A stretch of 60,255 bases of DNA, filler included, from Rhabdomonas costata (taxonomy: Eukaryota): assembly GCA_019059605.1 (NCBI GenBank). It is 13 parts of 13 records of this genome, joined end to end, with 100 filler letters (N's around TTAATTAATTAA, not from the genome) between each part and the next. Parts side by side here need not be neighbours in the genome. Positions count along the whole stretch, not along the records: positions 13,956 to 18,529 come from JAHMHO010000210.1; 12 more parts are not named here. The stretch is one strand, 5' to 3'. Below are positions 4,544 through 41,837 of this stretch, piece after piece. The position numbers were made by a program, and so were the translations under genes. The notes beneath the pieces are model-generated. The model worked only from the letters and a program-made list of their open reading frames with translations. It was not told where the DNA came from and searched no databases. The stretch's first letter is position 1. Each line of letters starts with the position of its first letter.

Positions 4544-4643
4544 NNNNNNNNNNNNNNNNNNNNNNNNNNNNNNNNNNNNNNNNNNNNTTAATTAATTAAN
4601 NNNNNNNNNNNNNNNNNNNNNNNNNNNNNNNNNNNNNNNNNNN
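4544..4643. other. Artificial contig spacer 44N-TTAATTAATTAA-44N (also at 9214, 13856, 18530, 23172, 27831, 32468, 37104, 41736, 46356, 50985, 55610)
   Basis: The same 100-nt linker, with stops in all six frames, occurs 12 times at intervals of about 4.6 kb. Confidence 0.98.
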
Positions 4644-5184: not shown

Positions 5185-7780
5185 GTGCGCGTGGCGTTCA
5201 AGTTCTCTTTCCTAACCTTTTTCTCTAGAGGTTCCGTGACGGTTTTGTAGTTGTCAATCGTTGACACCCACAACACGTCTACGATGACAAGCGTACTCCC
5301 ATAGGAAAAATTGGGGTCTTCTTGACCCGAAGAGGGCCATTCTCCGTTCCCTTCTCTGTGGATGTCCTTTACATTGTTTCTGGAACGAACCAAAGAACGA
5401 GCATCGTGTTTGTGCTACCTTGCAATCTGTGTCTGCGAATCAGTCAGTGTTCCGAGTCACCACGTTTGGATCAGCTACGGTTTCTGTAACGAACGAATTG
5501 AGCAGCGAACGTAGTGTGGTGTGATGTGGTGTGGAAATCGGGCACAGGGCTTGTTTTTAGTGCGAAATAGCCGATGCTTCAAGACCTCGTGTTTTTGTAC
5601 CATACCTTCAGTTTGGGATAAATGGTTTGTTTCGCATCGGAAGGCAGGAAAAGACATTCGTCTCATTACCAGAGGCCCCGGGGGACCGGGTCATGGTACA
5701 GCACAGTTTTGGTGCCGTGGTGGGGTATATAGTCTGCAAAAACGTGTCCCTGGGGTGGGGTGAGAGGGTTCCGGAACACAAAGGACAAGTTTGTAATGTA
5801 AGCTGTGAAGAGGTCAAGGGGAAACTGGCGAAAATCAGTTTGCCTCACAAACTTTTGTTTCACCACAGAAGGCAGGAAGAGACACTCCCTATAACCAGAG
5901 GTCGGAAGTGAGCAGCAGCTCACTTTTCTGGGAACGCATCGTTATTGCAAACGAGGAAAACGGGGAAATTTGGGTGGAGGTGGGGGTACCGAACCTCTTG
6001 GCCTCTGAGGTTACCGACCATTTTCGACCTCGGAAGCACCGCTGCAGCCGTGGGTTGAAATCTGGCGAGCGACGGCAAAAACNNNNNNNNNNNNNNNNNN
6101 NNNNNNNNNNNNNNNNNNNNNNNNNNNNNNNNNNNNNNNNNNNNNNNNNNNNNNNNNNNNNNNNNNNNNNNNNNNNNNNNNNNNNNNNNNNNNNNNNNNN
6201 NNNNNNNNNNNNNNNNNNNNNNNNNNNNNNNNNNNNNNNNNNNNNNNNNNNNNNNNNNNNNNNNNNNNNNNNNNNNNNNNNNNNNNNNNNNNNNNNNNNN
6301 NNNNNNNNNNNNNNNNNNNNNNNNNNNNNNNNNNNNNNNNNNNNNNNNNNNNNNNNNNNNNNNNNNNNNNNNNNNNNNNNNNNNNNNNNNNNNNNNNNNN
6401 NNNNNNNNNNNNNNNNNNNNNNNNNNNNNNNNNNNNNNNNNNNNNNNNNNNNNNNNNNNNNNNNNNNNNNNNNNNNNNNNNNNNNNNNNNNNNNNNNNNN
6501 NNNNNNNNNNNNNNNNNNNNNNNNNNNNNNNNNNNNNNNNNNNNNNNNNNNNNNNNNNNNNNNNNNNNNNNNNNNNNNNNNNNNNNNNNNNNNNNNNNNN
6601 NNNNNNNNNNNNNNNNNNNNNNNNNNNNNNNNNNNNNNNNNNNNNNNNNNNNNNNNNNNNNNNNNNNNNNNNNNNNNNNNNNNNNNNNNNNNNNNNNNNN
6701 NNNNNNNNNNNNNNNNNNNNNNNNNNNNNNNNNNNNNNNNNNNNNNNNNNNNNNNNNNNNNNNNNNNNNNNNNNNNNNNNNNNNNNNNNNNNNNNNNNNN
6801 NNNNNNNNNNNNNNNNNNNNNNNNNNNNNNNNNNNNNNNNNNNNNNNNNNNNNNNNNNNNNNNNNNNNNNNNNNNNNNNNNNNNNNNNNNNNNNNNNNNN
6901 NNNNNNNNNNNNNNNNNNNNNNNNNNNNNNNNNNNNNNNNNNNNNNGTTTGAGGGGTGGAACACGCGTTGCACTTTCAGTGGAGTTTCTTCAGCACGCTC
7001 TTTTCGGACCACTCTAAGTGAGGACGCTTTTTTCAATCCACTATATAAGCACTGTGTAAAGCTAACTCCGCCATTTCTACCTCGAGTACCTGAATAGCTA
7101 CGGTATATCAATGGAGGACCTCAAGGTTGATGAGGTGAGCAAAATGACATAAGAGAAACCCAACGAGACTCGAATGAAAGTGCTCAACATGTACAGAAGT
7201 ACACACGCGAGTAGGACATCGTGGAAGGAAGGAAAAAAATGGAGGTGAGCCAGGGGTATTGAAGATAGACCCTCCAGCAGAGTTACGAGTCCTCGTGAAC
7301 TGGCACATCAGTCTTGGCATCGCTCGTCACAAAACAGGCACGGAGCGAGCGTCAAATACTTTGCCACGTCCTGCTCGAACTTCTGCTTAGTGAGGGCCTT
7401 CTGGATTTGCGCAAGCTTGCGCTGAGTTGCGATGGCGCGTTTCCGAAGGAACCGCACTTTGGCCTGAGGGAGCACGCAGGGAATCGAGGGAAGCAGCAAC
7501 CAATATACATACAACATACAGTAGTAAACTACTGATGCCCAGAAGAGAAGCGGGACGAGGCCAGACAATGGCAGAAGCCTGCCTGTGGCCCCATTGGTTG
7601 ACTCAGCCGCGCTACCCAATGAACGTGTACATGGGACAGCGAGGTGCAGCGTCCCAAAGAGTCGGTGTGCGTGTGGACGCTTCAAAAGTTCTCAGCAAGA
7701 TCTCTCTAACGACCTGAAGACCATCATGCAGGAAAATAGGAGGGCTAGGGTTGTATTTTTTTGCTAGGACGGAGGATGGG

Positions 7781-8662: not shown

Positions 8663-9641
8663 CTGGGCCGCGAGGCGCGGAACGGTGCCGGGGGAAAGAG
8701 CTGCGAGCAACAGACGGTGCGGTGCGTATGGCTGTGAGGAGTTTCGTTGCACCGGGACTGGTGACAAAGAATATTTCAGGTGCTCTGGTCGGAGAGAACC
8801 AGAGAGCCCCTCCCCCAGCGGCCTCCTTGAAAGAAAGCTCACGAAGCGAGTTACCACTGAGAAAGCATAATCAGAAAGTCCATGAAACCTTGCGCCCCTC
8901 ATCTGAGCAAAGTCCAAGGCTCCTCACGTTTAAGTCAAATACCGAGAAAGTTCCCGAGTTCACGCGGAATAGGCAGCGGATCATAAATAGAAAATGGGTC
9001 TTGTGAAATATTGTCTGTTTGTGTGTGTGTGTGAGAGTGTGTGTGCTGGGTAGGGGGGGAGGGTGCCCGTACCAGGAACCAAGGTAATGATTACCGATTG
9101 GATCTTGGGTCAAAGACATTCTGGAATCCTCTGCTAATATCGTTGGAATCATGGTCCGTCTCTGACCACCACAGCATCCCAGAAAAAGGGTGAGCAAAAA
9201 TGAAAACAAAAACNNNNNNNNNNNNNNNNNNNNNNNNNNNNNNNNNNNNNNNNNNNNTTAATTAATTAANNNNNNNNNNNNNNNNNNNNNNNNNNNNNNN
9301 NNNNNNNNNNNNNGGGGTTGGTGTATTACGTGTATGTAAACAATCACACACTTCAGAAAGATCACCCCTTGTTACCAAGGGAAAATTTCAAGTTACCCGA
9401 TGCGCGTGCGCTTACCCCGTGCCCTTGGTACGGCGCAGAATATTACTCGCATTACTCGTATCGCTGTGGTTGCGAGGCAACGGGAAGGCGCAAAGAGGCG
9501 CAAGAGAGAATGCACCAGTCGTATCCAACGTCTTGGCTATTCTCATGGTCTTCAAATGTGGAAATTTTGCCAAGTCGCCCAACCGTGAGACGGTGCAGGT
9601 CTATAAGGGTTTAGTGATCATCCTCGTAACGAGTAGCTGGG

Positions 9642-13855: not shown

Positions 13856-16218
13856 NNNNNNNNNNNNNNNNNNNNNNNNNNNNNNNNNNNNNNNNNNNNT
13901 TAATTAATTAANNNNNNNNNNNNNNNNNNNNNNNNNNNNNNNNNNNNNNNNNNNNTGTGTTGTTGGAACCTGGTGTATGAAACCATACTCCCCACTACAT
14001 GCTGGTTGCACTCTAGCATCTAGGAAGAGCGTAGCAATTGTAAGTGTGGATGGAAGCATGGAAAAGGGGAACATGAGACAAGGAAGAGGAATGTACGTAG
14101 CGAGCGCAGCGAGCGGAGTCAGCGTAATATTACGAGCAAAGTGAGCGCAGAGACCGGAGTGATACACACAGCGACATCCTTTTCTTTAGCCCTCTGGTTA
14201 CAATTTCCATGCATCTATGCGTAGTAATACAAGAACATACACTCAAGACTATGGACTGAATCCAATCAATGATACGTGTGTTATGCCGTGCAGTAAACTT
14301 ATGTTCTCTGCTGTAATTGCCACACATTTGTAGAGTCATCAAGTATGTTAGAGCTAGTGTTCACGACACATAGTATCAGTCCTTGCGTGTACACCACATG
14401 TCTGACTAACTAAACCACATGTAGCCCTGGAAGGGAAGTCGTTCCACCGACCAACATGGTACTACCCAACATACATGTGTATCATTTCATAACCACATTA
14501 TAGTGTGTGGACAGGGAACTGAATCTTGTACATAACAGTGACGTTACAGTGATACTCACTACTGAACAACACAGAGTACATGACACGACCTCTTCCATGC
14601 AATTTATATAACCAACTGAGTGTAAATGGCCACAGCGTGTTAGCCCACAATAAAATATGGGACACGTTGTACAACCAGATCCACTGTAGCGGTTGATGTA
14701 GCAGCTTACCGGTTATTTTTCAATGCCCTCGACTACTGCTCAAATCTCAACAGTAGCTAACTGTACAACCACTACCACTCGCAGAAGTGACTCTAAGCCA
14801 TTGAGATGGACAGTGCAATGTTGTGATGCCACCATTGGCACCACTGACGCTGCAATCACAACCACCACATCATGTCAAGCACTGAAGCAACGGAAGTACG
14901 CCAATAGCTACTAATACATACTACCAATCTCTGCTAGTGACGACTTTAGCAATAATGCAGCGAATGGTTAACGTGGAAACTCCAGCCATCATGTGCAATG
15001 CTACGACAACAACCAAGGTTACGACAACCACAATCATCACATCAACGTAGCATGTATGCATGAAACAGTGTCACTCAGTGGTACGCTGTTTTCCACAACT
15101 TCCAGTTCCACATCCACAGAAGTGAAGAGTGCGTGTATAGTAGTTTCTAGAAAATCAACATCACACATATATTGGAATCATGGCCTGAGTTGTTGCAGAA
15201 GCGCGGTGATGACGCCAAAACAGCAGGGTGGTGGATGTTTACATGATGGCTACTTGGACGGTATTTTACACAATGATGTCAATCTCTCAGCCAGCCTCCA
15301 CTCAACCTTACTCACTCCAATGAGTAAGAGTGTGAGAGTGTGTGTAATTGTGAGTCTATCAAGCACAATACAAGATGCTGAGTGTGACGTGTGATGCTAC
15401 TCCGCTACAATAAGTGCACTTCTAATCAGCTTCATGCTGCCACACTTGCTACCTCTATGCATTCCTGACTCTGATAATGAGGCCAAGGGTGACAGAGAAA
15501 TGGTGGATACTCCCATTTTTGTAAAGCTATAGCTCCATTCCATACAGGCCGAAGCCTCATGTCATTCCGCTAGTAATGTTCAAATTCCCATTCGTGGTGT
15601 CCTGGGACCATAAACACCCAAGGGTGATGTGTATCGATACGCTTTGTACATGCTGCGCATCTCCTCGCTACGCTCTAAATGTCTTTACGTAGAAAGAAAA
15701 CTAAATGTTTCCGCGTCGCTGGTAACTACGTTCCTGGATCATTTTTGGTCACTCGTCGATGCTGCACATTTCCTCGTTCCTACTCCAACTCCATCTCGCT
15801 ACAATTGTGGTAGCTTTTGTGAAAACCATTCATACGTCCTCGCCGTGGTGACACTACATATGCAATTGTGGCTCTGAATAATTTTGGCACTAATACAATG
15901 ATTGTATTGCTTTGTGAATGGAAACTGTATGCGGAAAGTGATGATATATATGAGGATAGTGATAGATCATCATTTGAGGTTCAGAAATTTGCACTTACTC
16001 ACAGGAAGCCTGGATATACAGCAGTGGTGGAAACACGCAGCTCACAATATTGCATTTGCAATTCACGTGGTGCTGTAAACAAGATGATAGAGTGATTTTA
16101 ATGCATATTACTGACATGTGCATTGCATTTTACTATCATCTCCACACGTTTCATGAAGTGGTGATTTTGCTTACTGTTTTTACATGAGTGTGTGTCCATT
16201 TGCTCCTGCTGACGTTCA

Positions 16219-16830
16219 TTGAAGAAGAGCGTCAAAGTAAGTGCTGGAGATGGTGCTTCCTGTGAATGCTTGGAAACTCATCTGACAATGTTTCAAAAGT
16301 GTGCTCTTAACCAACAAGACGCAACTGTGGATAATATAGGCGGAAAAGACAAGAAAATTGAGGCTGACGAGACTGATGTGGGAAGAAAGATTAAAGGATA
16401 ACGTAGTCATGATTACACGATCCTTGGGAATGTTCGTAAAGTGATTGGCAGTGCAAATGGCCTGCTTTATTTGGAGGTTTTTGATAAGCTTCAGGATGAT
16501 TGCAATGAGCGCAGTTTTGGCCCACATAATATATTGGATGCCAGCTCTTTGTTTGACTACGTAAATTCTGGATTTCTCCTGCAGTGCAAAGACCTATATT
16601 GCACAGGCAAAGAAGCGCGGGCTGCTAGTCTCCTGTGTAGACCATGGCAATGGGGAGTACGTCCGCAAGTAACAATTGCGTGGCAATATGCGCACTGTGA
16701 GCACACAGGGCATTGATGACTAAAGTGTGGTTGGCTGCCAGATGTCGTGCAAATGCCGACCACGATATGTGGCGTAACACTATAGGCAACGCTGCCATTT
16801 TTGTAAAGATGTGTGATCATGTTCGTGACT
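16219..16830 (+). mobile_element. Decayed Merlin/IS1595 (ISXO2-like DDE) transposase remnant
   Basis: IGGKDKKIEADETDVGRKIKG*RSH matches GGxxxxVExDETxxGxRK. After a frameshift near 16570, FSCSAKTY...VDHGNGEYVRK*...VSTQGID matches SDxxxxY...VNHSxxEYV...HTNxIE. Internal stops are present and no TIRs were identified. Confidence 0.75.
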
Positions 16831-18242
16831 GACTTCGTATTAGTCTTTCATGGAGTTAGGGAGCCATGCCTACAAACCAAAGGAGCCTTCAGTGCGCGTT
16901 TGATGTTGTTAGGAAGCCTTCCAATGTGGCGTGGGAACCTACCATTTTTCTTTGTACTCTGCCAAAGTGATGTCATTCATTCATTACATCTAACGTATAC
17001 CTTTCTGCTCTTTCATTACAATCCAACACAGTTACACCACAATTTAATTCTGCCACAACAGCCAGTAGGTTGAATTAATTGTGCACAAATAATCTGATTT
17101 GATTGGCTGTGGAGCACGTTCCTCGCTCAATTATTTCATAATAAGAACCCACTTAAATCAACGTTATTCTTTACACTGCTTTTATTTACTGCGTGTCTTG
17201 CATTCAAAACTCTCACAAATTACACAACTGACAATTTAATCATCAGCCAAGAGTTAGAACTCACAGTGCTTTGGTTTTCAAAACAATCGAACGCTGGTTT
17301 TCAGTATGCACATGCCAGATTTGCTCAGACTCTCCACGGATGTCTGTCTACGCTGTTACAGTTATTAATTTTGTTCAATAAGACGTTTTGGTGTTTTTTT
17401 TAGTGGATAGTCTATGCGCATTATACAATTTATTGTTACTTCCAATTAAAACATCGACATCATCTGGTAATTTTTAATTCTTTGGCAGCACTTCTTGTTC
17501 CATTTCCAGTTGAATTCTTTTGATTTCTTGTTTACTTTGTTTCTGCCATGTTTTTTCCATCACAAGCTGTATAACATTTTATGAAGATGCGGAAATCTAT
17601 GTAGTTTTTAACGGGCTGTTCTAGGAAGCTAACATAATCGTGTTGTTTGTTTGTGTATTTATCTATAACTAAGCAGTATTTGATACACTTTCTTGTGTTG
17701 TCGTTCACACACCAGCATTCTTCTGTAGAATCATCTCCTGTACCCATACACTCTGTCACTGACAGTGGTATTGTGCCATTTTGACGCATACAACTCATTT
17801 ATGGAAACGACTCTATACAAAATTACACCGCAAATATTCTCTTCTGTCAATGCACTCATGCATGCTATGCTCCCTACATCTTCTTCGTCACATCCCAATG
17901 TCTCTAACCTAATACCAAAGCATTGTGTACACTATGGATCATACCACAAAGCTGATTTCATTGCGCAGACTTAGAACCATAATCTTAAGAAATCTACATT
18001 TAATAGCAACACGGGTGACAACTTGCACATAATATGGAAAACATTATGCACGACGTTAATTGAAGAATAAACGTTGTAACAAAAAAGAAAAAATGTAGTG
18101 AACAATACGTAGTAATAATGGTAGAAGTGCACAAACTATGATATCCATAAAACTTGTTGTAACTACAACATAAATACCAGTCAACAGGCACCAAGAACAA
18201 CGGTGAAGAGGTTATAGTGGTCACCCCGTTGGGTCTAAAATT

Positions 18243-18527
18243 AGAAACCGCTAGACACACCGAGGAGCCACACGCGACAAACAAAGGCTGATCCACAAGC
18301 ACCATACGCACCATACCCAACTCCAACGCACCACTACCCACCAACCGAGAATCCACACCGTTCAACTCCCACTACCATTGATGACCAACAACTGAAGCAA
18401 ATTCACCACGAAACGACGCCAGATCCACACCACCAGTCACCGCATACAAAGTAGCCATACCATGCACCAACCCCAAGCACAAAAACGCAACAGGCACCAC
18501 CGTCCACAACATCTCCAACACCGAATG
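18243..18527 (-). pseudogene. cox2: Mitochondrial-type cytochrome c oxidase subunit 2 fragment with one in-frame TAG (NUMT or mtDNA gene piece)
   Basis: 95 codons in one frame: HSVLEMLWTVVPVAFLCLGLVHGMATLYA...SVVGHQW*WELNGVDSRLVGSGALELGMVRMVLVDQPLFVACGSSVCLAVS. These match Cox2 LExxWTxxP, LY, GHQWYW and DS...G..R...VD at the expected spacing. Codons are strongly G/T-biased, unlike the nuclear exons. Confidence 0.85.
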
Positions 18528-19024
18528 CTNNNNNNNNNNNNNNNNNNNNNNNNNNNNNNNNNNNNNNNNNNNNTTAATTAATTAANNNNNNNNNNNNNNN
18601 NNNNNNNNNNNNNNNNNNNNNNNNNNNNNGGTTTTGGGTCGAATTTAACTTTTTTGGGGAGCCTCCTGGAGACTTCACAAGCTCACGAGGGAAGGCCGCG
18701 GTGCAGGAAAACATTCCAGGGGGAGGAGGGGTGCCTCAGGGTCAAAAAGAGCCCTTGAGCAAGGAGCGCCATAAAGGTTCAGAATTTACTTGCCTTGTTC
18801 TTTTTCCTGGAGAGGACTGAAATCGAATATTTGCCGCACTATACGTTATCCATTGCATCTTCGAATAGCTTCGTTATTGTTCATTAAATCACCAGCTAAT
18901 TCGTTCCTTCCAGTCGGGCAAATGAGCTCGAAAATAACCCGAGGAAAATGCCCAGTTTACTGATTTCCACTAAGTTTACAAAGCACGAGGCGACGGGATC
19001 TGCAAGGTTGCAGGGTCAACACAC

Positions 19025-23130: not shown

Positions 23131-23406
23131 AAAGAGATGCTTATTCAGCTCTCATTGTGCTCACACCCACANNNNNNNNNNNNNNNNNNNNNNNNNNNNN
23201 NNNNNNNNNNNNNNNTTAATTAATTAANNNNNNNNNNNNNNNNNNNNNNNNNNNNNNNNNNNNNNNNNNNNACTGAAGGCGAGGTTGTTTTATGATGTCA
23301 TTGTATACGGCACCTCACGCATGCTGGTCCAAGCAATACATTGGTGTCCCCTCGTTTGCTGACGTGCGAGTGGGGTTCCTGCTTCTGCACTGTGCCGTCC
23401 ACACAG

Positions 23407-25192
23407 GCTGGGGCCATCTCTACATCACCACGGAGCTGGGCACGAATGAGGGCTGGTGGGCTGCGGGCTTCCTGGAGGGCAGCCTGACCTCTCACCGCAT
23501 CTACGAGCACTACATCAGCTGGTATGATACGAAGTTTCCGAACGGGAGCACTCCCACAAGGCCCTCGAAGGCAGTGTGGAAGTTTATCCAGGACCAGTAC
23601 GAGTGGGCAGCCTCGCAGGCCGAGGAGCACAGCGCCAAGGGCTGCAATTACTGGACTCAGGTGGCGCGAATCCTGAGCTTTACCAACGGGGTTGCCGCAG
23701 GCCAGGCCTTCTTTGCCCCAGCGAAGGAGGCGCTGTCGTGGCTTGAGATGCTGCTGCTGCAGGCGAAGGCGATCTCAGCAACATCCAACACGCGGTGGAC
23801 TCAACTGGACTGGACTGGGATAATCTGTCCGATGAGGAGCACTTCCTGGAATGGCACAAGCGGGTGTCTTGCTCGGTGCTGTGGAAGGTGAACGACGCGC
23901 TGACCGACGTGATTGTGGCCCACAATACTTGGACGTCGTACCAGACCATGCTGCGGGTGATGAAGCACTATGACCTGGCTGGGCATCCCGATGCCAAGGC
24001 CCCAAATCAGACTGTGGGGCACTACAAGGCCCTTTTCAGCTCCTATCCTGGCACGGCGCAAAGTGTGGATGACTTCTACACACTTCCGCTGTCCCACCAG
24101 CAGCTGGTGGTGACAGAGACAACAAATAACATCTACAATAAGTCTCTGTTTGGCTCCGTCACCCCGAAGTCGCTTCTGTCATGGCAGAGCGTGATGGTGA
24201 GCAATGCGCTGGCCCGGAACTCGTCCGAGTGGACCCAGATCTTCGCGAAGCACTGCTCTGGCACCTACTCCAACCAGTGGATGGGTAAGGAGCAATTGGG
24301 AGGAAGGAGCTTTGGTTTTTGAAATGAAACCTGTGTGTGTTCGACCTTCCCTACTGAGGAATAAATCACGGGAAGAAATAAAGGTGAACTGTGGTGTGAG
24401 AGACGGAAAGGGGTGAATATGGGGATCTGGTGACTTTGCTCTACTGAGGGTAAGGTTTCGAAAGAAAGCGGGAGACACCGCCGAAAAATTGTAGGTTTAC
24501 TCTAAGTTTATTTATCAGCTAAGTGTTAATCTGGCTGTCTCTTCCCCCTACCTGCTCTGAGTGTTTGCAAGGCCGATTGAAGTCCTTGCCAGGGCTTCTA
24601 CCAAACCCTTAAATAAATGGTTTCAATAAATGGCAAAAAGTGATCCGAAGTTAGTTCTAAAACACTAGGCACATGTAGAGCAAGGAGAAAACTATCCTCT
24701 GATAACCGCGGCCTCCTTGATAATCCTGCACACGCACGCTCACACTGCTGGGATCCCGAGACCGCAACGGGCATCAGAAGGAGAACCCCTTTATTCACTT
24801 CCCATGCGCATCTGCCGAAAACTTCAAGTGTCAGGTAAAGTGTGAAAGCCCCTTGGGAGGCCGCTCCCCAGATTCCGTGCATATGCACCACGTCTTAAGA
24901 TGCGTCGAGTCCTGCCCGCGTAAACACAGAAATCCTGTGTTGTGACACGCTTTATCTTTCGTTTGAACTCATCTCTCCCATGAGCCCATGTATTCTCTGT
25001 TTCTTTACCGGTGATCAGTGGGGGACATGAAACTCTTCACCCCGGGTGAGGGCACGAAGCCCGGCTTCTTGCACATTATCGAGGTCTTGCCGGGATACAC
25101 CCACGCCGGGGACGTGACAGCCGTGATGGTGGCGCAGGGGAACTACTGGCCCAGCTACAACATCCCGTATTTCGTCGACATTTCACGGCTTT
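23407..25192 (+). CDS. Phospholipase B-like (PLBD, Ntn-hydrolase) with a 1-nt frameshift near 23765; exons 23407-24284 and 25019-gap
   Basis: Motifs GWGHLYI, AGFLEGSLT, GDL, SCSVLWK (nucleophile Cys), AHNTW, FSSYPG..S.DDFY, ETTN, SGTYSNQWM and YWPSYNIPYF occur in order. The GT-AG intron 24285-25018 is phase 1. Confidence 0.9.
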
Positions 25193-26468
25193 NNNNNNNN
25201 NNNNNNNNNNNNNNNNNNNNNNNNNNNNNNNNNNNNNNNNNNNNNNNNNNNNNNNNNNNNNNNNNNNNNNNNNNNNNNNNNNNNNNNNNNNNNNNNNNNN
25301 NNNNNNNNNNNNNNNNNNNNNNNNNNNNNNNNNNNNNNNNNNNNNNNNNNNNNNNNNNNNNNNNNNNNNNNNNNNNNNNNNNNNNNNNNNNNNNNNNNNN
25401 NNNNNNNNNNNNNNNNNNNNNNNNNNNNNNNNNNNNNNNNNNNNNNNNNNNNNNNNNNNNNNNNNNNNNNNNNNNNNNNNNNNNNNNNNNNNNNNNNNNN
25501 NNNNNNNNNNNNNNNNNNNNNNNNNNNNNNNNNNNNNNNNNNNNNNNNNNNNNNNNNNNNNNNNNNNNNNNNNNNNNNNNNNNNNNNNNNNNNNNNNNNN
25601 NNNNNNNNNNNNNNNNNNNNNNNNNNNNNNNNNNNNNNNNNNNNNNNNNNNNNNNNNNNNNNNNNNNNNNNNNNNNNNNNNNNNNNNNNNNNNNNNNNNN
25701 NNNNNNNNNNNNNNNNNNNNNNNNNNNNNNNNNNNNNNNNNNNNNNNNNNNNNNNNNNNNNNNNNNNNNNNNNNNNNNNNNNNNNNNNNNNNNNNNNNNN
25801 NNNNNNNNNNNNNNNNNNNNNNNNNNNNNNNNNNNNNNNNNNNNNNNNNNNNNNNNNNNNNNNNNNNNNNNNNNNNNNNNNNNNNNNNNNNNNNNNNNNN
25901 NNNNNNNNNNNNNNNNNNNNNNNNNNNNNNNNNNNNNNNNNNNNNNNNNNNNNNNNNNNNNNNNNNNNNNNNNNNNNNNNNNNNNNNNNNNNNNNNNNNN
26001 NNNNNNNNNNNNNTGTGGCATACAATGATTCTTCATTGTTTGCTTTGTTTTCCTGTATGCTGCACTCTGATTGTTACCGTTGCGGTACTTTGCCGGTGTT
26101 GGGTTGGAGTGGGGGGGGGCACCGTAGACGGTCCCTTTACATGCTCTGCATTCGAGACACGTACACCTTGAGGTTTTCAATAATGTCGGTGATGTCATGA
26201 ATTAAAGCCACACGCCGGTGCTCTGTCAAGGATATTTTGCGTTCCACACAAGGCTGAGAGCAGGTTTTATCGCAAACACAAGCCAACTCATGTACACATT
26301 CGCAAAAGTGCTTTGGAAACGGGCATTCGTTAAGCTGCGAACGGTAGGGTTTTTAGCGTGCCAGTCTGCAGCGAACGTTCCCCTTCTTAGCTATCATAGT
26401 ATCCTTTGTTGTCTTTGCTGGGTTTCTTTGTTGTCCCTTTGGTTTTTGTGTGTGTGGTGGGGGATTCG

Positions 26469-32339: not shown

Positions 32340-32958
32340 CTGGACCAAACCCAATGCACAACCCACAAATACGTTCGCCCTGCTTCCGGACCTAATATAT
32401 ATTCTGTCGATTTGTCATTGCATTGATCGAAGTAGTGTACGGGCAGTAAGGTACCCAAAAACACCACNNNNNNNNNNNNNNNNNNNNNNNNNNNNNNNNN
32501 NNNNNNNNNNNTTAATTAATTAANNNNNNNNNNNNNNNNNNNNNNNNNNNNNNNNNNNNNNNNNNNNGGTGTTGTGGTTGGCTTTCAGAGGTGGCGTTTC
32601 ACAGGAACAGCGGTGCCATGTATTATTTGAGGGAAGAAATGACTTCAAGTATTTTGTGGACTTTCAATTGACAAAGCCGCAGCTGACGATGAACTTTTCC
32701 ACCAGAAAACGCGTCGGGGTCTGTTCTATCTCGCTGGACCTGTCAGTGCCCCTTGGCCATTGCCTTCGCTAAGATTTATAGCTGTTGTTGTGAGGTTGCA
32801 AAAACCCTTCGAATAACCCGAGCAGCTTGTGACCTGTTTTTTTTGCCTTACACACACGCTGCGAACTGTAAGGAAGCTTTCTTCCTTACAGTTCCTGTCT
32901 TCCCGACGAGGCGCATGATGGGTTGTCCTGTGCCCCTCCATCGCCTCTTGAATAATAG

Positions 32959-35091
32959 GAAGTACCTTTATTGGCTGCTTTGCGGACAACACCGACGCGG
33001 GCAGCACGAGGGACATCCCCAACCCGAACACTGGCTCCACCCCCGCGACGTGCATCGCAGCGTGCAAGGCCGCAGGGTATACGTATGCGGCATTGCAGTG
33101 GGCTGAGGAGTGCTGGTGTGGGCCCTCCTACGGGTCTTATGGAGTTTCACAGCGATGTAACTTCTATTGCTTAGCCGACGCCAGTCAAAACTGCGGAGGC
33201 TGGGCCTCCAACGTCGTGTACCTCACCACTGCCGCCAGCAGTATGCCGCCCAATTCCTGTGGGCTGTGTTGCGCTGTTTGTATGGATCTTCTGTGGTGTG
33301 TGGCATCAGGTGCGCTTTTTAGTGGATTGTGGAATTTTCGAAGATTTTGAGGTTGTAGGAGCGTTTCTTTGCTACCCCGAGCCTTGACTTGTGTGAATGC
33401 CTGCATGAGGATTTGTTTCCAGTGCTTCTCTGCTCCAGTGCGTTGTTGCCTGTGCGTTTTTGCCAGTGCGTCGGCTCGGTCTGTGCGAACTGGTGGGTCT
33501 GTATGCCTGCTGATGTTCCCTCCTCAGGGTTGTGGTGGTATGCATGAAAAAAGGACTGCGACCGCTATCGGAAACATCGGCAGTAGAGATAGTGGGGTGG
33601 AGTGCTGATGCGGTCCGGGCGATCGCTCATTGCTCGAGTATAAGGGACGCAAGGAACAAGCCTAGAACAGGACTGTACGACACAAGGGCACATGACCAAA
33701 GCTTGTGGGCCGAAACCAGGTGATGAACATCTGGGAAGGATGCGTAAGTTCTCTGCAAAACGTGATTGATTTTCGATACATTGAAGCAAGGAATGGAGCA
33801 AACAAAAGAGGCACGAATACAGTGATCGACAGAGTTCTTAAAGGACTGAATCCCACATGATTTGTCAATTATTACAATTCTTTTGCGTTGTAGGTAAGCA
33901 CCAAAAAACCTTCAAATTGGGGCAGAGAGAACAAAACACAACAATCAGAACAAAGCGAATGGGACCACCAGTCTCTGGTTCTGAAGGGAAGACCAACAAT
34001 CGAAGGCACGCCAATTTTTGCGGTGGGAAAAACGGTGCAGACTCCGTGAGTCGTGAGTGTCATGGAAGTGACCTCGCCAAACTCGTCGTCAAGACATTTT
34101 GCGTTTGGATATGACAAGAAATGAAAGATCTTGGCGATATGTTGAGTTTTCAGCAACATGTAACGTTTGTGATGGATGCACGACAGATCCGTCCTGCGTG
34201 GCAACCGCTGCTCCGGTGGGGTATGTCGGCGACTGCACTGCTGGCACGACCTGCACCCCCACTCCAGCCATAGCCTGCGCCTCCGGGTACTACCGTTTGC
34301 CCGGATGGAGCGCATCGGGTGCCCAATGCGTGATCAATGGAGGATCCTTTTCCTACTTCGGATGTGGTGTGCCACCTGAGTGTTTTTTTTGTCAAAGTTT
34401 TCGGTTTTGCATATTCTTTTGAAGTAAAAACGTGCACTTTGTTCTCACCAAAGCCTGTATTGTGCACTGAGCTGCCTCGAACATGTGCCAAGGATGTGCC
34501 CTCGATCAAAGCGGAAGCAGAAGGATGTGCCCTCACCACCCTGTGCTGATGTTGTGTGCCGGTCTTTGAACACTGGACAATGATTCCGTTCCCTCACCAC
34601 CCTGTTGCAGAGCAGAAGCTGATTGCACCGCTTGGCCGCTGCGTTCGGGTCTGCGGTTATATGCAGAACGCATAAACTCAAAGGCGAAAAAAGAGAGCGT
34701 CAGCTGCATTACACTCCGGGAACTTAGGCATACAAGAAGAGGATATAAGGTCTGCATCAAGGCAGGTAAAACCAAACCAAACCAAAGCGATTGCCTTTTA
34801 TCGTTGCCCCTTTTCCACCAGGAAGTAATTACATCGGCTGCTTCACTGGAGAGGCCTCCCAACTGCCCTTCCAGGCGGCGATATCTGCAGTGACGCCAAC
34901 TTCATGCTCCTCTCGTTGTCTGGCGCTGGGGTTCCGGTACTCTGGGGTCCAGCAGGGCTCGCAGTGCTGGTGCGGAAACGCCTTTAGCAGAAATGGGTTT
35001 TCCAAGACGTTGTGCACCACGCCGTGCACCGCGGACTCGGGTCAGATCTGCGGAGGTTCCAGCGATGCGATGTCGGTTTACCTTACCAAAG
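32959..35091 (+). CDS. Extracellular protein with two WSC carbohydrate-binding domains and a Cys-rich module; exons 32959-33240, 34154-34366, 34822-35091
   Basis: FIGCFAD...TPATCIAACKAAGYTYAALQWAEECWCG...C...C...CGG...VY and YIGCF...TPTSCSSRCLALGFRYSGVQQGSQCWCGN...CTTPCTADSGQICGG...VY both show the 8-Cys WSC pattern. Confidence 0.9.
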
Positions 35092-35807
35092 GTGTGCATC
35101 TCATCTCCGTTCGACAGCGCTTCGTCGATGGACCCCTTTTTCTAATGATGGGGTTTGACAGCTCTTGCGTAAGATGCTTGTCCCCGCCGAGAGGAACACC
35201 GAGAGAGGGAGCTACACACTTGGTCTTGAAATGAGAGTAATTGGGGTAAGGGTGGTCACTTTACGCAGCTCGAATCCATTCAAAACACCTTCTCCTTTGC
35301 GGGTCCCAGCACACCTGTTGTTTCTTCCATTACAATATAAGGCTATTCCACCCGGAAACAGAGAGATTAGTCTGTAACAAGTCTTTTTACCCTGTTTTTA
35401 TGTCGCTGGTCTCAAAAATGTAGTGTACTTGGAGATGACCGCAGTCCGTAGTTCCGTAGTTGAGGGTTTGGCCTGGGAGGCAAAATACGGTATGGAAACG
35501 AGCTTTGCGCGCCGAAGGCGCGGGGATTTATAGGAGTGAATCTCCAGCCCTTTCAGACCTTTAGGTACACAGTATACAGTACAAAGGCGAAGTTTCGCCC
35601 TAAAGAACAGTCTTTTTGAAGGTGACATTGGTGTGTTGCTGGTGCACGGCGTGCACCTTCAACATCAGGCGACACATTGACTGCCCTGTTTTAGCACCGC
35701 TCAGCCCTACATCCAGTGCTTGACCTGCAAAGGTCTCAGTTTACGGTGGAGCCCATTATGAATTTGCGATCTGACTATGGAATTTCTCTTTTTGTTTTCT
35801 TTACAAG

Positions 35808-39128: not shown

Positions 39129-41720
39129 CTACTCCGCTGGGCGGATGGCCTGACCAGTCTTAAGTAAAGATGGGGCCAGCGAATTTTCCGAAAGCACAAT
39201 CCCCCGGACTTCCACTTCGGATTCCAAGTTCCAGAGCTGGATCGTCTTGTCAAAGCTTCCGCTCACAACGCGACTCCCGTCGGGGCTAACCCCCACCGCA
39301 ATCACATAGCTCATGTGGCCAGAGAGGGTTCGCTCCAGCACCCCGGTTTGCAGATTCCAAACTTTGACCGTGCTGTCGGCACTTCCGCTAACCACGCGAT
39401 TTCCGTCGGAACTAATCGCTACCGCAAAGACCATGTGAGTGTGTGCAGTGAGGGTCCGCTCTTGTTGGCCGGACTGCAAGTTCCAGATCCCAATTGTGTT
39501 GTCGGCAGTTCCGCTCACAACATACTTCCCGTTTGGGCTAAATGCGACAGCGAGGATGTCCTCGGTTTTGCCTGTAAGAGTTTGTTCCTCCTTCCCACTC
39601 ACCAAATTCCACACCTTGATTGTGCCTTTCCGACCACCACTGGCAAGCCGGGTCCCGTTGAAGCTAATGGTGAGCGGAATGAAGTCACCCGCGTTGCCAC
39701 TGAGGGTTCGCTCCAACCTTCCAGACCGCAGGTTCCAAATCTTAATGATGCCATCGGCACTTCCGCTGACAAGGCGGTTCGCGTCCGGGCTAATGACAAC
39801 CGCTCTGACGTCGCTTTTGTGGCCAGTGAGGGTGCGCACCACCTTCCCCGTAAGCAGGTTCCAAACCTTGACCGTGCCGTCGTCACTTCCGCTCACAAGG
39901 CGACTCCCGTTGGGGCTTATTGCCACCGCTCTAACCCAGCCCGTGTGACCTGTAAGGGTGCGCTCCAACTTCCCGGACTCTAGGTTCCACAGCTTGATTG
40001 TCTTGTCCCAACTTCCACTCGCGAGAAGATTACCGTCGGGGCTGATCGATACCGAAAATACCCAGCCGGTGTGACCACGCAGAGGTTCCTCACCACAAAA
40101 CAGTCCCCCAAGGGATGCCTCTCGAAGGTCCACGTCCACGAGCCGAGGGTGAGTCAAGACAGCATATCGAAGGTCCACCCCCCACCAGCAGCTCTCCATG
40201 ACTTGCAGGCCATCCAAGTGCGCGCCAGCGAAGCGGCACCCAGTGAGGTCCCATCCTCGGATCTCGTGCCCCGCCGCAGCTATCAGCGTCATCGCGTTGG
40301 CCGCAGCACGGCAACGCCGGCCCTCCGCCGTGCTATCCCAAAGACTCGCCGAGCTCTCCTCACCGCAGGACTGGTGCGTGTCCCCTCGCGTTGCTTCCAC
40401 AATACCTCGCAGGGCCGCCACCCAGCTCTGCTGGTCCTCTACGGGGCAATGCGCATGCAGGTCCCGCACAAAGCCTCGCACCGCGGGAAGACTGCCCAGG
40501 TCTAGCCCACCACTGCAGAGCTCCTCCGTCAGCGCCTGGGGCTGCCTCAGCAGGAGCTGCGCAGCAAAGAATTCCTGCAGGCTGAGGTGCGAGAACGACA
40601 CCAGGGCCTTCATCTCTCGCAGCCGACCCATACGCATTGGGGAGCTCAGCAGAAGCCCATCCACAAGCCCTCTCTCCTCCGCACTCTCCGGCCCTTCGCT
40701 GGAGTCTTTGAGGGAAGAGAGGCACGCTCTCAGGTGACGCCGGAAAATCTTCCGCACGGCTTCCATGGGCAGGTGGGTCTCTCGGCGGACGCTCAGCTGC
40801 AGAGCCACCTCTTGGCAGGAGCTCAGCACAACGGACACAGCTGAAGTTCCTTCGTGCGGGAACTTCGGAACGTAACTCAGGCGGACTGCCACCTCTCCCT
40901 TCACTTGACCCCCCAAAACAATGCGGTACACCTCTCCACGATTCAGAGCCTGCTGCCGCGGCTTCTCGAACTCCTGCAGCTCTGCCTCGGAGGCAGTGCA
41001 CAGCATGGCGGCCAACACCGGCGTCGCGGTGAGCTCCCGGAGCTTAGGGAGACTCTGCACGCGAGGCACAAGTTTGGAAGCTCTGGCATGCGCTTCCGAT
41101 GCAGCACAGGCCCGTGCGTTCTCGTTGTACCGGGAGACGACCTCCTGACGGGCTGCTCTCATTTCTCGCAGCATCACCGCGTTGTTTTTCTTTCCTTTCC
41201 GGGAATGGTGCAGCCCCTTCTCAATCATTTCGTGAGCTTCGGCGGCTTGGCGGGGCTTCAGCTTTTCCTTTCCCAGGGCTTCTTCAAAAGCCAAGCGTGT
41301 CATCGAAGAATGGGCTAACAGGCGGAAGTCTTCCTCGGAAAAGGGCTTCACCCAATGTTCTGTAGCTGCGGCGCGGGACCCAAGCACTTCGCTCACTTCG
41401 GGCACCGCCTCGGGGCGCGAGGTCACCACAACCCATCGCAGAGCTGGCCCAACCACTCGCCAAAGCAAGTCCACCAGCCCTCCACCGGCAATCACGGTGT
41501 CTCGAATGCTGGGCATGACTTCGTCCCATGAGTCGCAGATCAGCACAATGCTTTGCTCCTCAGCAACGCCAAAGTCCTCTCCGCTCAAACCCAGGGAAGA
41601 CCGGTAGAACCGACTCAAGCCGGCATCCATATCCTTCAGGTCCTCACCAAGCAAGGGCAGAGACAAAAAGATGACCTGAAGACCCGGGACGGAGAGGAGG
41701 TTGTGCTGAAGCAGAAGCAC
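39129..41720 (-). CDS. NACHT-type STAND NTPase + pentapeptide-like linker + 7 WD40 repeats (NLR-like), intronless, 5'-truncated
   Basis: 863-aa open frame: Walker B LICDSWDE, VVVTSRPE, TPVLAAMLC, winged-helix FSHLSLQEFFAA, AAANAMTL, pentapeptide-like DLTGCRFAGAHLDG/DLREASL, and seven 42-aa repeats ending in WN (~40083-39229). Confidence 0.9.
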   Translation of the reverse strand: MLLLQHNLLSVPGLQVIFLSLPLLGEDLKDMDAGLSRFYRSSLGLSGEDFGVAEEQSIVLICDSWDEVMPSIRDTVIAGGGLVDLLWRVVGPALRWVVVTSRPEAVPEVSEVLGSRAAATEHWVKPFSEEDFRLLAHSSMTRLAFEEALGKEKLKPRQAAEAHEMIEKGLHHSRKGKKNNAVMLREMRAARQEVVSRYNENARACAASEAHARASKLVPRVQSLPKLRELTATPVLAAMLCTASEAELQEFEKPRQQALNRGEVYRIVLGGQVKGEVAVRLSYVPKFPHEGTSAVSVVLSSCQEVALQLSVRRETHLPMEAVRKIFRRHLRACLSSLKDSSEGPESAEERGLVDGLLLSSPMRMGRLREMKALVSFSHLSLQEFFAAQLLLRQPQALTEELCSGGLDLGSLPAVRGFVRDLHAHCPVEDQQSWVAALRGIVEATRGDTHQSCGEESSASLWDSTAEGRRCRAAANAMTLIAAAGHEIRGWDLTGCRFAGAHLDGLQVMESCWWGVDLRYAVLTHPRLVDVDLREASLGGLFCGEEPLRGHTGWVFSVSISPDGNLLASGSWDKTIKLWNLESGKLERTLTGHTGWVRAVAISPNGSRLVSGSDDGTVKVWNLLTGKVVRTLTGHKSDVRAVVISPDANRLVSGSADGIIKIWNLRSGRLERTLSGNAGDFIPLTISFNGTRLASGGRKGTIKVWNLVSGKEEQTLTGKTEDILAVAFSPNGKYVVSGTADNTIGIWNLQSGQQERTLTAHTHMVFAVAISSDGNRVVSGSADSTVKVWNLQTGVLERTLSGHMSYVIAVGVSPDGSRVVSGSFDKTIQLWNLESEVEVRGIVLSENSLAPSLLKTGQAIRPAE

Positions 41721-41837
41721 CCCCCAAACACACCANNNNNNNNNNNNNNNNNNNNNNNNNNNNNNNNNNNNNNNNNNNNTTAATTAATTAANNNNNNNNN
41801 NNNNNNNNNNNNNNNNNNNNNNNNNNNNNNNNNNNTT

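Follow-up and report, generated by a model that had tools for sequence, protein, structure and literature searches.

The window, a stretch of 60,255 nucleotides from Rhabdomonas costata, carries on its minus strand 95 codons that, on comparison with homologous proteins, represent a fragment of COX2 and not the whole of COX2. The single TAG codon of this piece is located at the tyrosine of the conserved GHQWYW motif, where it reads as a sense codon for tyrosine that is common to a clade, and not as a nonsense mutation. We judge the truncated copy to have about an even chance of being a non-functional gene fragment of the Euglena type that resides on a recombinant mitochondrial DNA molecule.

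The cox2 piece and the contig that carries it

The window is composed of 13 contigs of ~4.5–4.6 kb each, which are chained via 12 identical linkers (N44 + TTAATTAATTAA + N44). Two longer runs of N are additionally present within contigs (6083–6946 and 25193–26013). The DNA outside positions 13956–18529 derives from other contigs and is therefore uninformative on the cox2 locus. As a practical warning, unrelated contigs are strung together in this record, and arguments from neighbourhood that reach across a linker are therefore invalid. The features of the contig and of the piece are the following:

13956–18529: contig carrying the cox2 piece (4574 bp), bounded by linkers
4544–4643, 9214–9313, 13856–13955, 18530–18629 and eight more: artificial linkers that join unrelated contigs, spaced ~4.6 kb apart
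18530–18629: linker 3′ of the cox2-bearing contig (N44 + TTAATTAATTAA + N44)
18243–18527, minus strand: truncated cox2 copy (95 codons) that spans the second membrane helix (HSVLEMLWTVVP) and GHQWYW and stops just ahead of the first CuA ligand segment
18372–18374, minus strand: TAG codon at the conserved tyrosine of GHQWYW, read as tyrosine, the sole stop in the translation
18444–18446, minus strand: ordinary tyrosine codon TAT (ATLYAV), column 75 of the codon alignment

We infer that the cox2-bearing contig is NODE_259_length_4574_cov_20.9373, the last cox2 row in Table S7 of PMC8219788, where it is entered with a tblastn match to Euglena gracilis Cox2 (E 9e-10); length and cox2 match both agree, and three further contigs of the window share their lengths with NODE_264, NODE_266 and NODE_267 (4559, 4543 and 4542 bp). 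The first-pass annotation had favoured a nuclear location for the piece on account of a nearby Merlin relic. However, no Merlin/IS1595-type transposase was found in the 76 ORFs of 33–84 aa on the contig, nor, window-wide, in 247 ORFs (246 of at least 85 aa together with an 868-aa ORF). The argument for a nuclear location thus falls away, since other contigs lie beyond 13955 and 18530, no transposase relic is found on the contig and the contig is atypical both in composition and in published coverage.

Elsewhere in the window, the 868-aa open frame (39132–41735, minus strand) reaches the contig end, with its C-terminal half formed by consecutive WD40 repeats (E 1.7e-77); for its N-terminal half, no family was found among the 25 best matches listed. 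Two overlapping frames on the plus strand (23277–23888 and 23747–24319) match positions 11–133 and 133–295 of the Phospholipase B profile, respectively, and look like a nuclear gene that either contains a short intron or changes frame. Their contig (4559 bp), taken as NODE_264, has spliced transcripts in Table S2 (PMC8219788). Another contig bears two plus-strand ORFs (32952–33347 and 34770–35231), each with a complete WSC carbohydrate-binding domain (E ~1e-16).

Translation of the minus strand from 18527 to 18243 yields 95 residues with no frameshift, HSVLEMLWTVVP...VVGHQW*WELNG...LVDQPLFVACGSSVCLAVS, and thereby confirms the initial description of 95 codons of Cox2 in which the sole stop is TAG at 18374–18372 (GHQW-stop-W). 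The coding strand had also been described as G/T-rich, and indeed comprises 112 G and 107 T in 285 bases (77% G+T). The one normal tyrosine codon that had been pointed out, TAT, is likewise present at 18446–18444, and the tryptophan codon in the piece is TGG. The best solved relative is the COX2 chain 8iuf_C2 (196 aa; E 1.5e-12, aligned residues 53–136), followed in rank by ordinary mitochondrial and bacterial COX2 chains, and the best matches in a large protein collection are environmental Cox2 sequences with 67–76% identity, among them P0001 (76%, E 3e-37). On the basis of these two pairwise E-values, homology to Cox2 far beyond chance can be regarded as confirmed. The score against the Pfam COX2 family (PF00116) remains below the cut-off (17.1 versus 22 bits) and covers only the first half of the profile (positions 5–60 of 120), as is to be expected of a fragment.

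Two features of COX2 are present in the piece, namely the second membrane helix with its LE(x)xWTxxP motif, where HSVLEMLWTVVP aligns with 8iuf_C2 from residue 53 onward and with all relatives, and the aromatic GHQWYW motif that marks the start of the outer domain, here as GHQW-TAG-W with TAG read as tyrosine. The CuA ligand motif, which we take to consist of the histidine of DVxH followed by CxExCxxxHxxM, is seen in the relatives as DVIHC...CAELCGSGHGFM. Both the DVxH histidine and the later segment are absent from the piece, and nothing like the latter was found downstream. Each of the 23 columns invariant among 7 aligned sequences is retained in the piece, which contains no TAA. Searches for proteins of longer, similar and shorter length returned other species only, with no identical copy of the piece among them.

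The cox2 piece adjoins the end of the contig at 18529, and the front of the gene is missing because the contig ends there, not for a biological reason. Thus, the initial view of the piece as isolated stands for the 3′ side, where the break is real, but not for the 5′ side, where the isolation is that of a contig end. Cox2 similarity probably runs to the last contig base, 18529, and the last two contig bases, which read AG before CAT, would fit a TAG at the Tyr/Phe column that precedes HSVLEM in the relatives.

Reading of TAG as tyrosine

A mitochondrial code in which UAG specifies tyrosine and UGA specifies tryptophan has been proposed for Rhabdomonas costata by Soukal et al. 2021 (Sci Rep 11:13070; PMC8219788). 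Many UAG codons were reported at conserved tyrosine positions in cox1, cox2, cob and nad4, together with a complete cox2 that displays no sign of RNA editing or introns (PMC8219788). As regards the decoding machinery, unusual Tyr-tRNA synthetases are noted (PMC8219788). In the literature from 2019 on, the 2021 paper was the only relevant one for UAG=Tyr in euglenid mitochondria among the matches listed. The reassignment is therefore already known for Rhabdomonas costata, having been published in 2021, and nothing new follows for the code itself.

A metagenome scan retrieved nine cox2 loci (L001–L009) with 64–77% identity to the piece, which collapse to four lineages (L001/L002, L003/L004, L005–L007 and L008/L009). 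The 71 further metagenome loci that were kept are distant matches with ~29–37% identity and were left out of the comparison. The codon-attached cox2 alignment of the window with the nine loci comprises 206 columns, 10 of which contain TAG; eight of these have TAT or TAC in other lineages, and two are variable sites. At the GHQW-Y-W column, TAG is found in the window, in L003/L004 and in L008/L009, which amounts to two of the four related lineages, with TAT in L001/L002 and TAC in L005–L007. ORF P0012 of a further relative terminates exactly at GHQW. The first-pass annotation had suggested tabulating codons at conserved tyrosine columns, and this exercise, run on cox2 of the nine related loci, reveals that TAG recurs at tyrosine columns.

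Given that eight of the 10 TAG columns pair with TAT/TAC, that two of the four lineages use TAG at this site and that the code has been published, the TAG does not represent a nonsense mutation. Of the three readings offered initially, that of a mitochondrial code with UAG=Tyr was therefore correct for this codon, in agreement with both the published proposal (PMC8219788) and the eight TAG columns that align with TAT/TAC. The reading as a NUMT with one nonsense mutation fails with respect to the mutation, and survives, as an unlikely alternative that is weighed below, with respect to a recent and undecayed NUMT.

In the contigs of L003 (1–2835) and L004 (2–3754), as well as those of L001, L002 and L009, one frame of the G+T-rich strand is free of TAA over the whole contig, extending up to 3.75 kb. 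The ends of genes therefore cannot be read from stops. The flanks of cox2 in the relatives also contain TAG and TGA codons. What the present comparison adds is that UAG=Tyr is shared by four uncultured metagenome relatives, such that the reassignment marks a clade and not only one species.

The break and the remainder of the contig

The 3′ side of the piece and the rest of the contig comprise three features:

18240–18245, minus strand: breakpoint, where Cox2 similarity stops after TCT (Ser, 18245–18243) and the next codon, AAT, belongs to unrelated sequence
18000–18242, minus strand: in-frame T-rich tail from the ORF listing, 80 codons followed by TAA (18002–18000)
13956–18242, no strand assigned: gene-less, A+T-richer remainder (GC 0.416), a composition outlier among the window contigs

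In nine of nine related loci, representing the four lineages, cox2 is continuous across the break point. These loci run on as ...SVCLGVSS(A/V)DVIHCYSVP...CAELCGSGHGFMPCG, whereas the window instead reads ...SVCLAVS followed directly by NFRPNG, and the piece stops one residue short of the DV(I)H copper-ligand segment. The first reading had noted that similarity ends abruptly before this segment, and this proves accurate: the relatives continue into DVIH, and the 443 bases past the break score at or below the mean of shuffles when compared with the 3′ cox2 halves of eight relatives, the observed score being reached by 97–197 of 200 shuffles. A short match in MAFFT, considered as residual cox2 after the break, was rejected by local alignment against shuffles. 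When the contig was searched with tblastn and blastn against the mitochondrial contigs of the relatives, only 18240–18527 was matched, and nothing resembling the cox2 flanks of the relatives was found elsewhere on the contig. The junction displays no special DNA fold or hairpin (z −0.08), and no motif resembling an amplification primer or adaptor was found there, although this is a weak check.

The in-frame tail of 80 codons is probably a meaningless read-through. No relative was found at E ≤ 0.001 in a search of 1.84 billion representatives, and the lack of stops is only slightly unusual, with 220 of 5000 shuffles (4.4%) being free of stops over the same length, or 21% when TAA is taken as the only stop. 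Elsewhere on the contig, 2.8% of windows of 80 codons are stop-free.

Past the break, the GC content falls from 0.52 to 0.34–0.46 and the G+T skew vanishes. The mitochondrial contigs of the relatives are nearly uniform in GC along 2.8–6.4 kb, mostly with a G+T-rich strand, as exemplified by L003/L004 (G+T 0.64–0.82 over 2.8–3.8 kb) and L006 (GC 0.59–0.68 over 6.4 kb). The remainder is also distinct from the 12 other window contigs in its GC content (0.416 versus 0.494–0.556), in its TpA observed/expected ratio (0.79 versus 0.49–0.61) and in its 4-mer distance to these contigs, which at 0.055 is approximately twice that among the 12 contigs themselves (0.026–0.031). The longest ORF of the remainder is shorter than that of any of the 12 other contigs.

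With the standard code, neither the 10 ORFs of 85 aa or more nor the 76 ORFs of 33–84 aa on the contig contained a Pfam family above its cut-off, and with TAA as the sole stop, 27 ORFs returned COX2 but no other mitochondrial gene. An Rfam scan of the contig gave two chance-level matches and no rRNA piece. Repeats on the contig are restricted to short chance-like pairs, none of which is shared with other window contigs, and the remainder as a whole has no similarity to these contigs. In the visible flank, neither nuclear genes nor spliced transcripts nor shared repeats were found.

The k-mer coverage listed in Table S7 for NODE_259, presumably the contig in question, is 20.9 (PMC8219788). The cox2 piece constitutes 6% of the contig and therefore cannot raise the mean coverage alone. 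For six intron-bearing contigs of this size, the coverages are 4.2–8.0, i.e. ~3–5-fold below 20.9 (Table S2, PMC8219788), and, by a hand count in the sampled part of this table, only one of about 78 intron-bearing contigs reaches 20.9. NODE_259 is absent from the spliced-transcript table (PMC8219788). The comparison of read depth with nuclear contigs, as advised in the first-pass annotation and made here with published values, thus speaks against a nuclear location (20.9 versus 4.2–8.0; PMC8219788). Unlike ordinary nuclear DNA, the whole contig looks multi-copy, and it is an outlier in both coverage and composition.

Coverage is, however, unreliable in the Rhabdomonas costata assembly, given that coverage is as low as 1.58 for the contig curated as complete cox2, with several partial cox2 contigs at 8–38 (Table S7, PMC8219788). 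The source DNA was obtained from sorted or microdissected cells with a PCR-based whole-genome amplification (WGA) kit, and the assembly comprises 143,763 contigs with an N50 of 1194 (PMC8219788). PCR amplification from few cells renders coverage uneven and chimeras plausible. Twelve contigs match Cox2 in Table S7, several of them long enough to hold the whole gene, with matches of only partial strength (PMC8219788). The same table contains a few contigs with cox1 or nad matches at a coverage of 0.14–0.22, which may be prey or contaminant DNA (PMC8219788).

Origin of the truncated copy and known systems

The best explanation for these observations would be a gene fragment in mitochondrial DNA. 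Under the mitochondrial code proposed for Rhabdomonas costata, with UAG for tyrosine and UGA for tryptophan, the TAG at GHQW-Y-W is a normal sense codon, and the 285-base stretch is a faithful, yet incomplete, copy of the middle of cox2, which on its 5′ side is cut by the end of the contig. On its 3′ side, the copy is joined to unrelated, gene-less and A+T-richer DNA one residue before DV(I)H, with the junction presumably created by recombination and the contig itself presumably mitochondrial. The piece would yield no working Cox2, this being provided by a full-length cox2 elsewhere in the assembly. Consistent with such a fragment, the piece is undecayed, having no frameshift, no TAA and all of its conserved columns, and the contig coverage of 20.9 together with the atypical composition of the remainder fits non-coding mitochondrial DNA. 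Arguing against it are the abrupt change of GC and G+T skew at the break, unlike the mitochondrial contigs of the relatives, and the lack on the contig of any other mitochondrial gene, rRNA piece, repeat or cox2 flank of the relatives, as well as the amplified nature of the source DNA, with its uneven coverage and potential for chimeras.

ORF P0004 of a relative (438 aa, on four contigs, the longest being 10.8 kb) starts with ~31 residues of the second helix of cox2. This start is 87% identical to L008/L009 (22–31 residues aligned per locus) and is followed by unrelated Gly/Val/Ala-rich sequence. P0004 represents a second isolated cox2 piece in the clade, which agrees with a fragment-rich mitochondrial DNA. 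If the 12 cox2 contexts of Table S7 (PMC8219788) are real, then the fragment-strewn, recombining mitochondrial DNA of Euglena gracilis would be an older euglenid trait. The piece itself is an ordinary by-product, either of fragment-rich euglenid mitochondrial DNA or of a fragmented, amplified assembly.

There is some possibility, albeit a doubtful one, that the junction at 18243 is absent from the cell and arose as a chimera during amplification or assembly, in which a true continuous cox2 became joined to unrelated DNA. The use of WGA-amplified DNA from few cells and the fragmentation of the assembly (143,763 contigs, N50 1194; PMC8219788) would favour such an event, as would a contig that enters cox2 by 285 bases only and then stops, a shift of composition that coincides exactly with the break and a piece that is perfectly intact, as expected of a real gene. 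However, a partner acquired by chance would have to be an outlier in both coverage (20.9 versus 4–8) and composition, and the 12 cox2-bearing contigs (PMC8219788) are many for chimeras alone. The junction also lacks adaptor-like sequence, although this is a weak check.

A nuclear origin appears unlikely, even in the form of a recent NUMT, that is, an undecayed mitochondrial cox2 insert in an A+T-rich, gene-poor nuclear region, with its TAG inherited from the mitochondrial code. Such an insert would account for the sharp composition boundary at the break and for a flank that has no mitochondrial feature, resembles eukaryotic non-coding DNA and gives no ORF family matches. Yet this flank differs from the 12 other window contigs in GC, TpA and 4-mers, and the coverage of the contig is ~3–5-fold that of intron-bearing contigs of the same size (PMC8219788). 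The piece exhibits no frameshift and no TAA and has lost no conserved residue, no Merlin relic, as invoked in favour of a nuclear context, was found, and a single junction is visible, the other side being the contig end, such that insertion cannot be shown. Thus, the piece resembles NUMTs in being an isolated piece of a mitochondrial gene that adjoins DNA without mitochondrial features, but differs from them in showing no decay, in having one visible junction and in a flank whose composition and coverage set it apart from the nuclear contigs at hand.

It is highly improbable that the piece is functional, as a diplonemid-like module joined at the RNA level or as a cox2a-like half with an expressed frame of 175 codons (Cox2 plus the 80-codon tail): the break does coincide with a domain boundary, immediately ahead of the CuA-binding segment, another 80 codons follow without a stop, as in only 4.4% of shuffles, and the coverage is 20.9 compared with 1.58 for the contig curated as full-length cox2 (PMC8219788), but cox2 is continuous at the break point in nine of nine related loci, a complete cox2 with no editing or introns has been reported (PMC8219788), the tail has no relatives (none among 1.84 billion) and a composition unlike G+T-rich coding DNA, and 21% of shuffles are open with TAA as the only stop. 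The continuity in the relatives and the complete cox2 reported to lack editing (PMC8219788) also leave the earlier suggestion of a module in need of trans-splicing or editing unsupported. There is similarly very little chance that pieces are the dominant genomic form of cox2, with the front piece at a coverage of 20.9 versus 1.58 for the continuous contig, and are expressed in a chimeric or cox2a-like form or joined as RNA; dominant cox2 pieces would then represent an early stage of diplonemid-type gene fragmentation.

The mitochondrial gene modules of diplonemids are trans-spliced and U-appended (PMC4700960). The likeness to them lies in the euglenozoan host and in a gene piece that stands alone in DNA, whereas cox2 is continuous in the relatives and, according to PMC8219788, in Rhabdomonas costata. 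The contig revealed neither a repeat nor a diplonemid-like cassette or constant-region architecture. Split cox2a/cox2b is known in chlorophycean algae and alveolates, where it consists of two conserved, expressed genes with extensions. As in this split, the break here separates a membrane-anchored front from a CuA-binding back part, but no relatives of the tail were found, and cox2 has been reported as a continuous gene (PMC8219788).

For the preferred reading, a non-functional fragment in mitochondrial DNA, the point of comparison is Euglena gracilis, the mitochondrial DNA of which is made up of heterogeneous linear molecules with a modal size of ~4 kb in which full-length genes are accompanied by numerous short, non-functional pieces of genes (PMC4700960). 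As here, the fragments in E. gracilis are truncated gene copies located beside unrelated sequence (Dobakova et al. 2015, PMC4700960, also citing Spencer and Gray 2011). A piece of ~4.6 kb with a full-length cox2 elsewhere (PMC8219788) is like the arrangement in E. gracilis (PMC4700960), the mitochondrial location being a presumption in the present case. This contrasts with base composition, as the coding DNA here has a GC content of ~52% and is G+T-rich, whereas the mitochondrial DNA of E. gracilis is A+T-rich (PMC4700960).

With respect to the code, the sponge Clathrina clathrus and some labyrinthulids, which are unrelated lineages, have likewise changed UAG from stop to tyrosine in their mitochondria (as cited in PMC8219788). 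In C. clathrus, UAG=Tyr is also combined with UGA=Trp, but CGN is changed there as well (PMC8219788), and nothing suggests a change of CGN here. The piece conforms to the published code of Rhabdomonas costata in having UAG at a conserved tyrosine of cox2, and its TGG tryptophan codon is allowed by that code. While PMC8219788 curated four other contigs and does not discuss this one, the comparison made here extends the same codon use to four environmental lineages.
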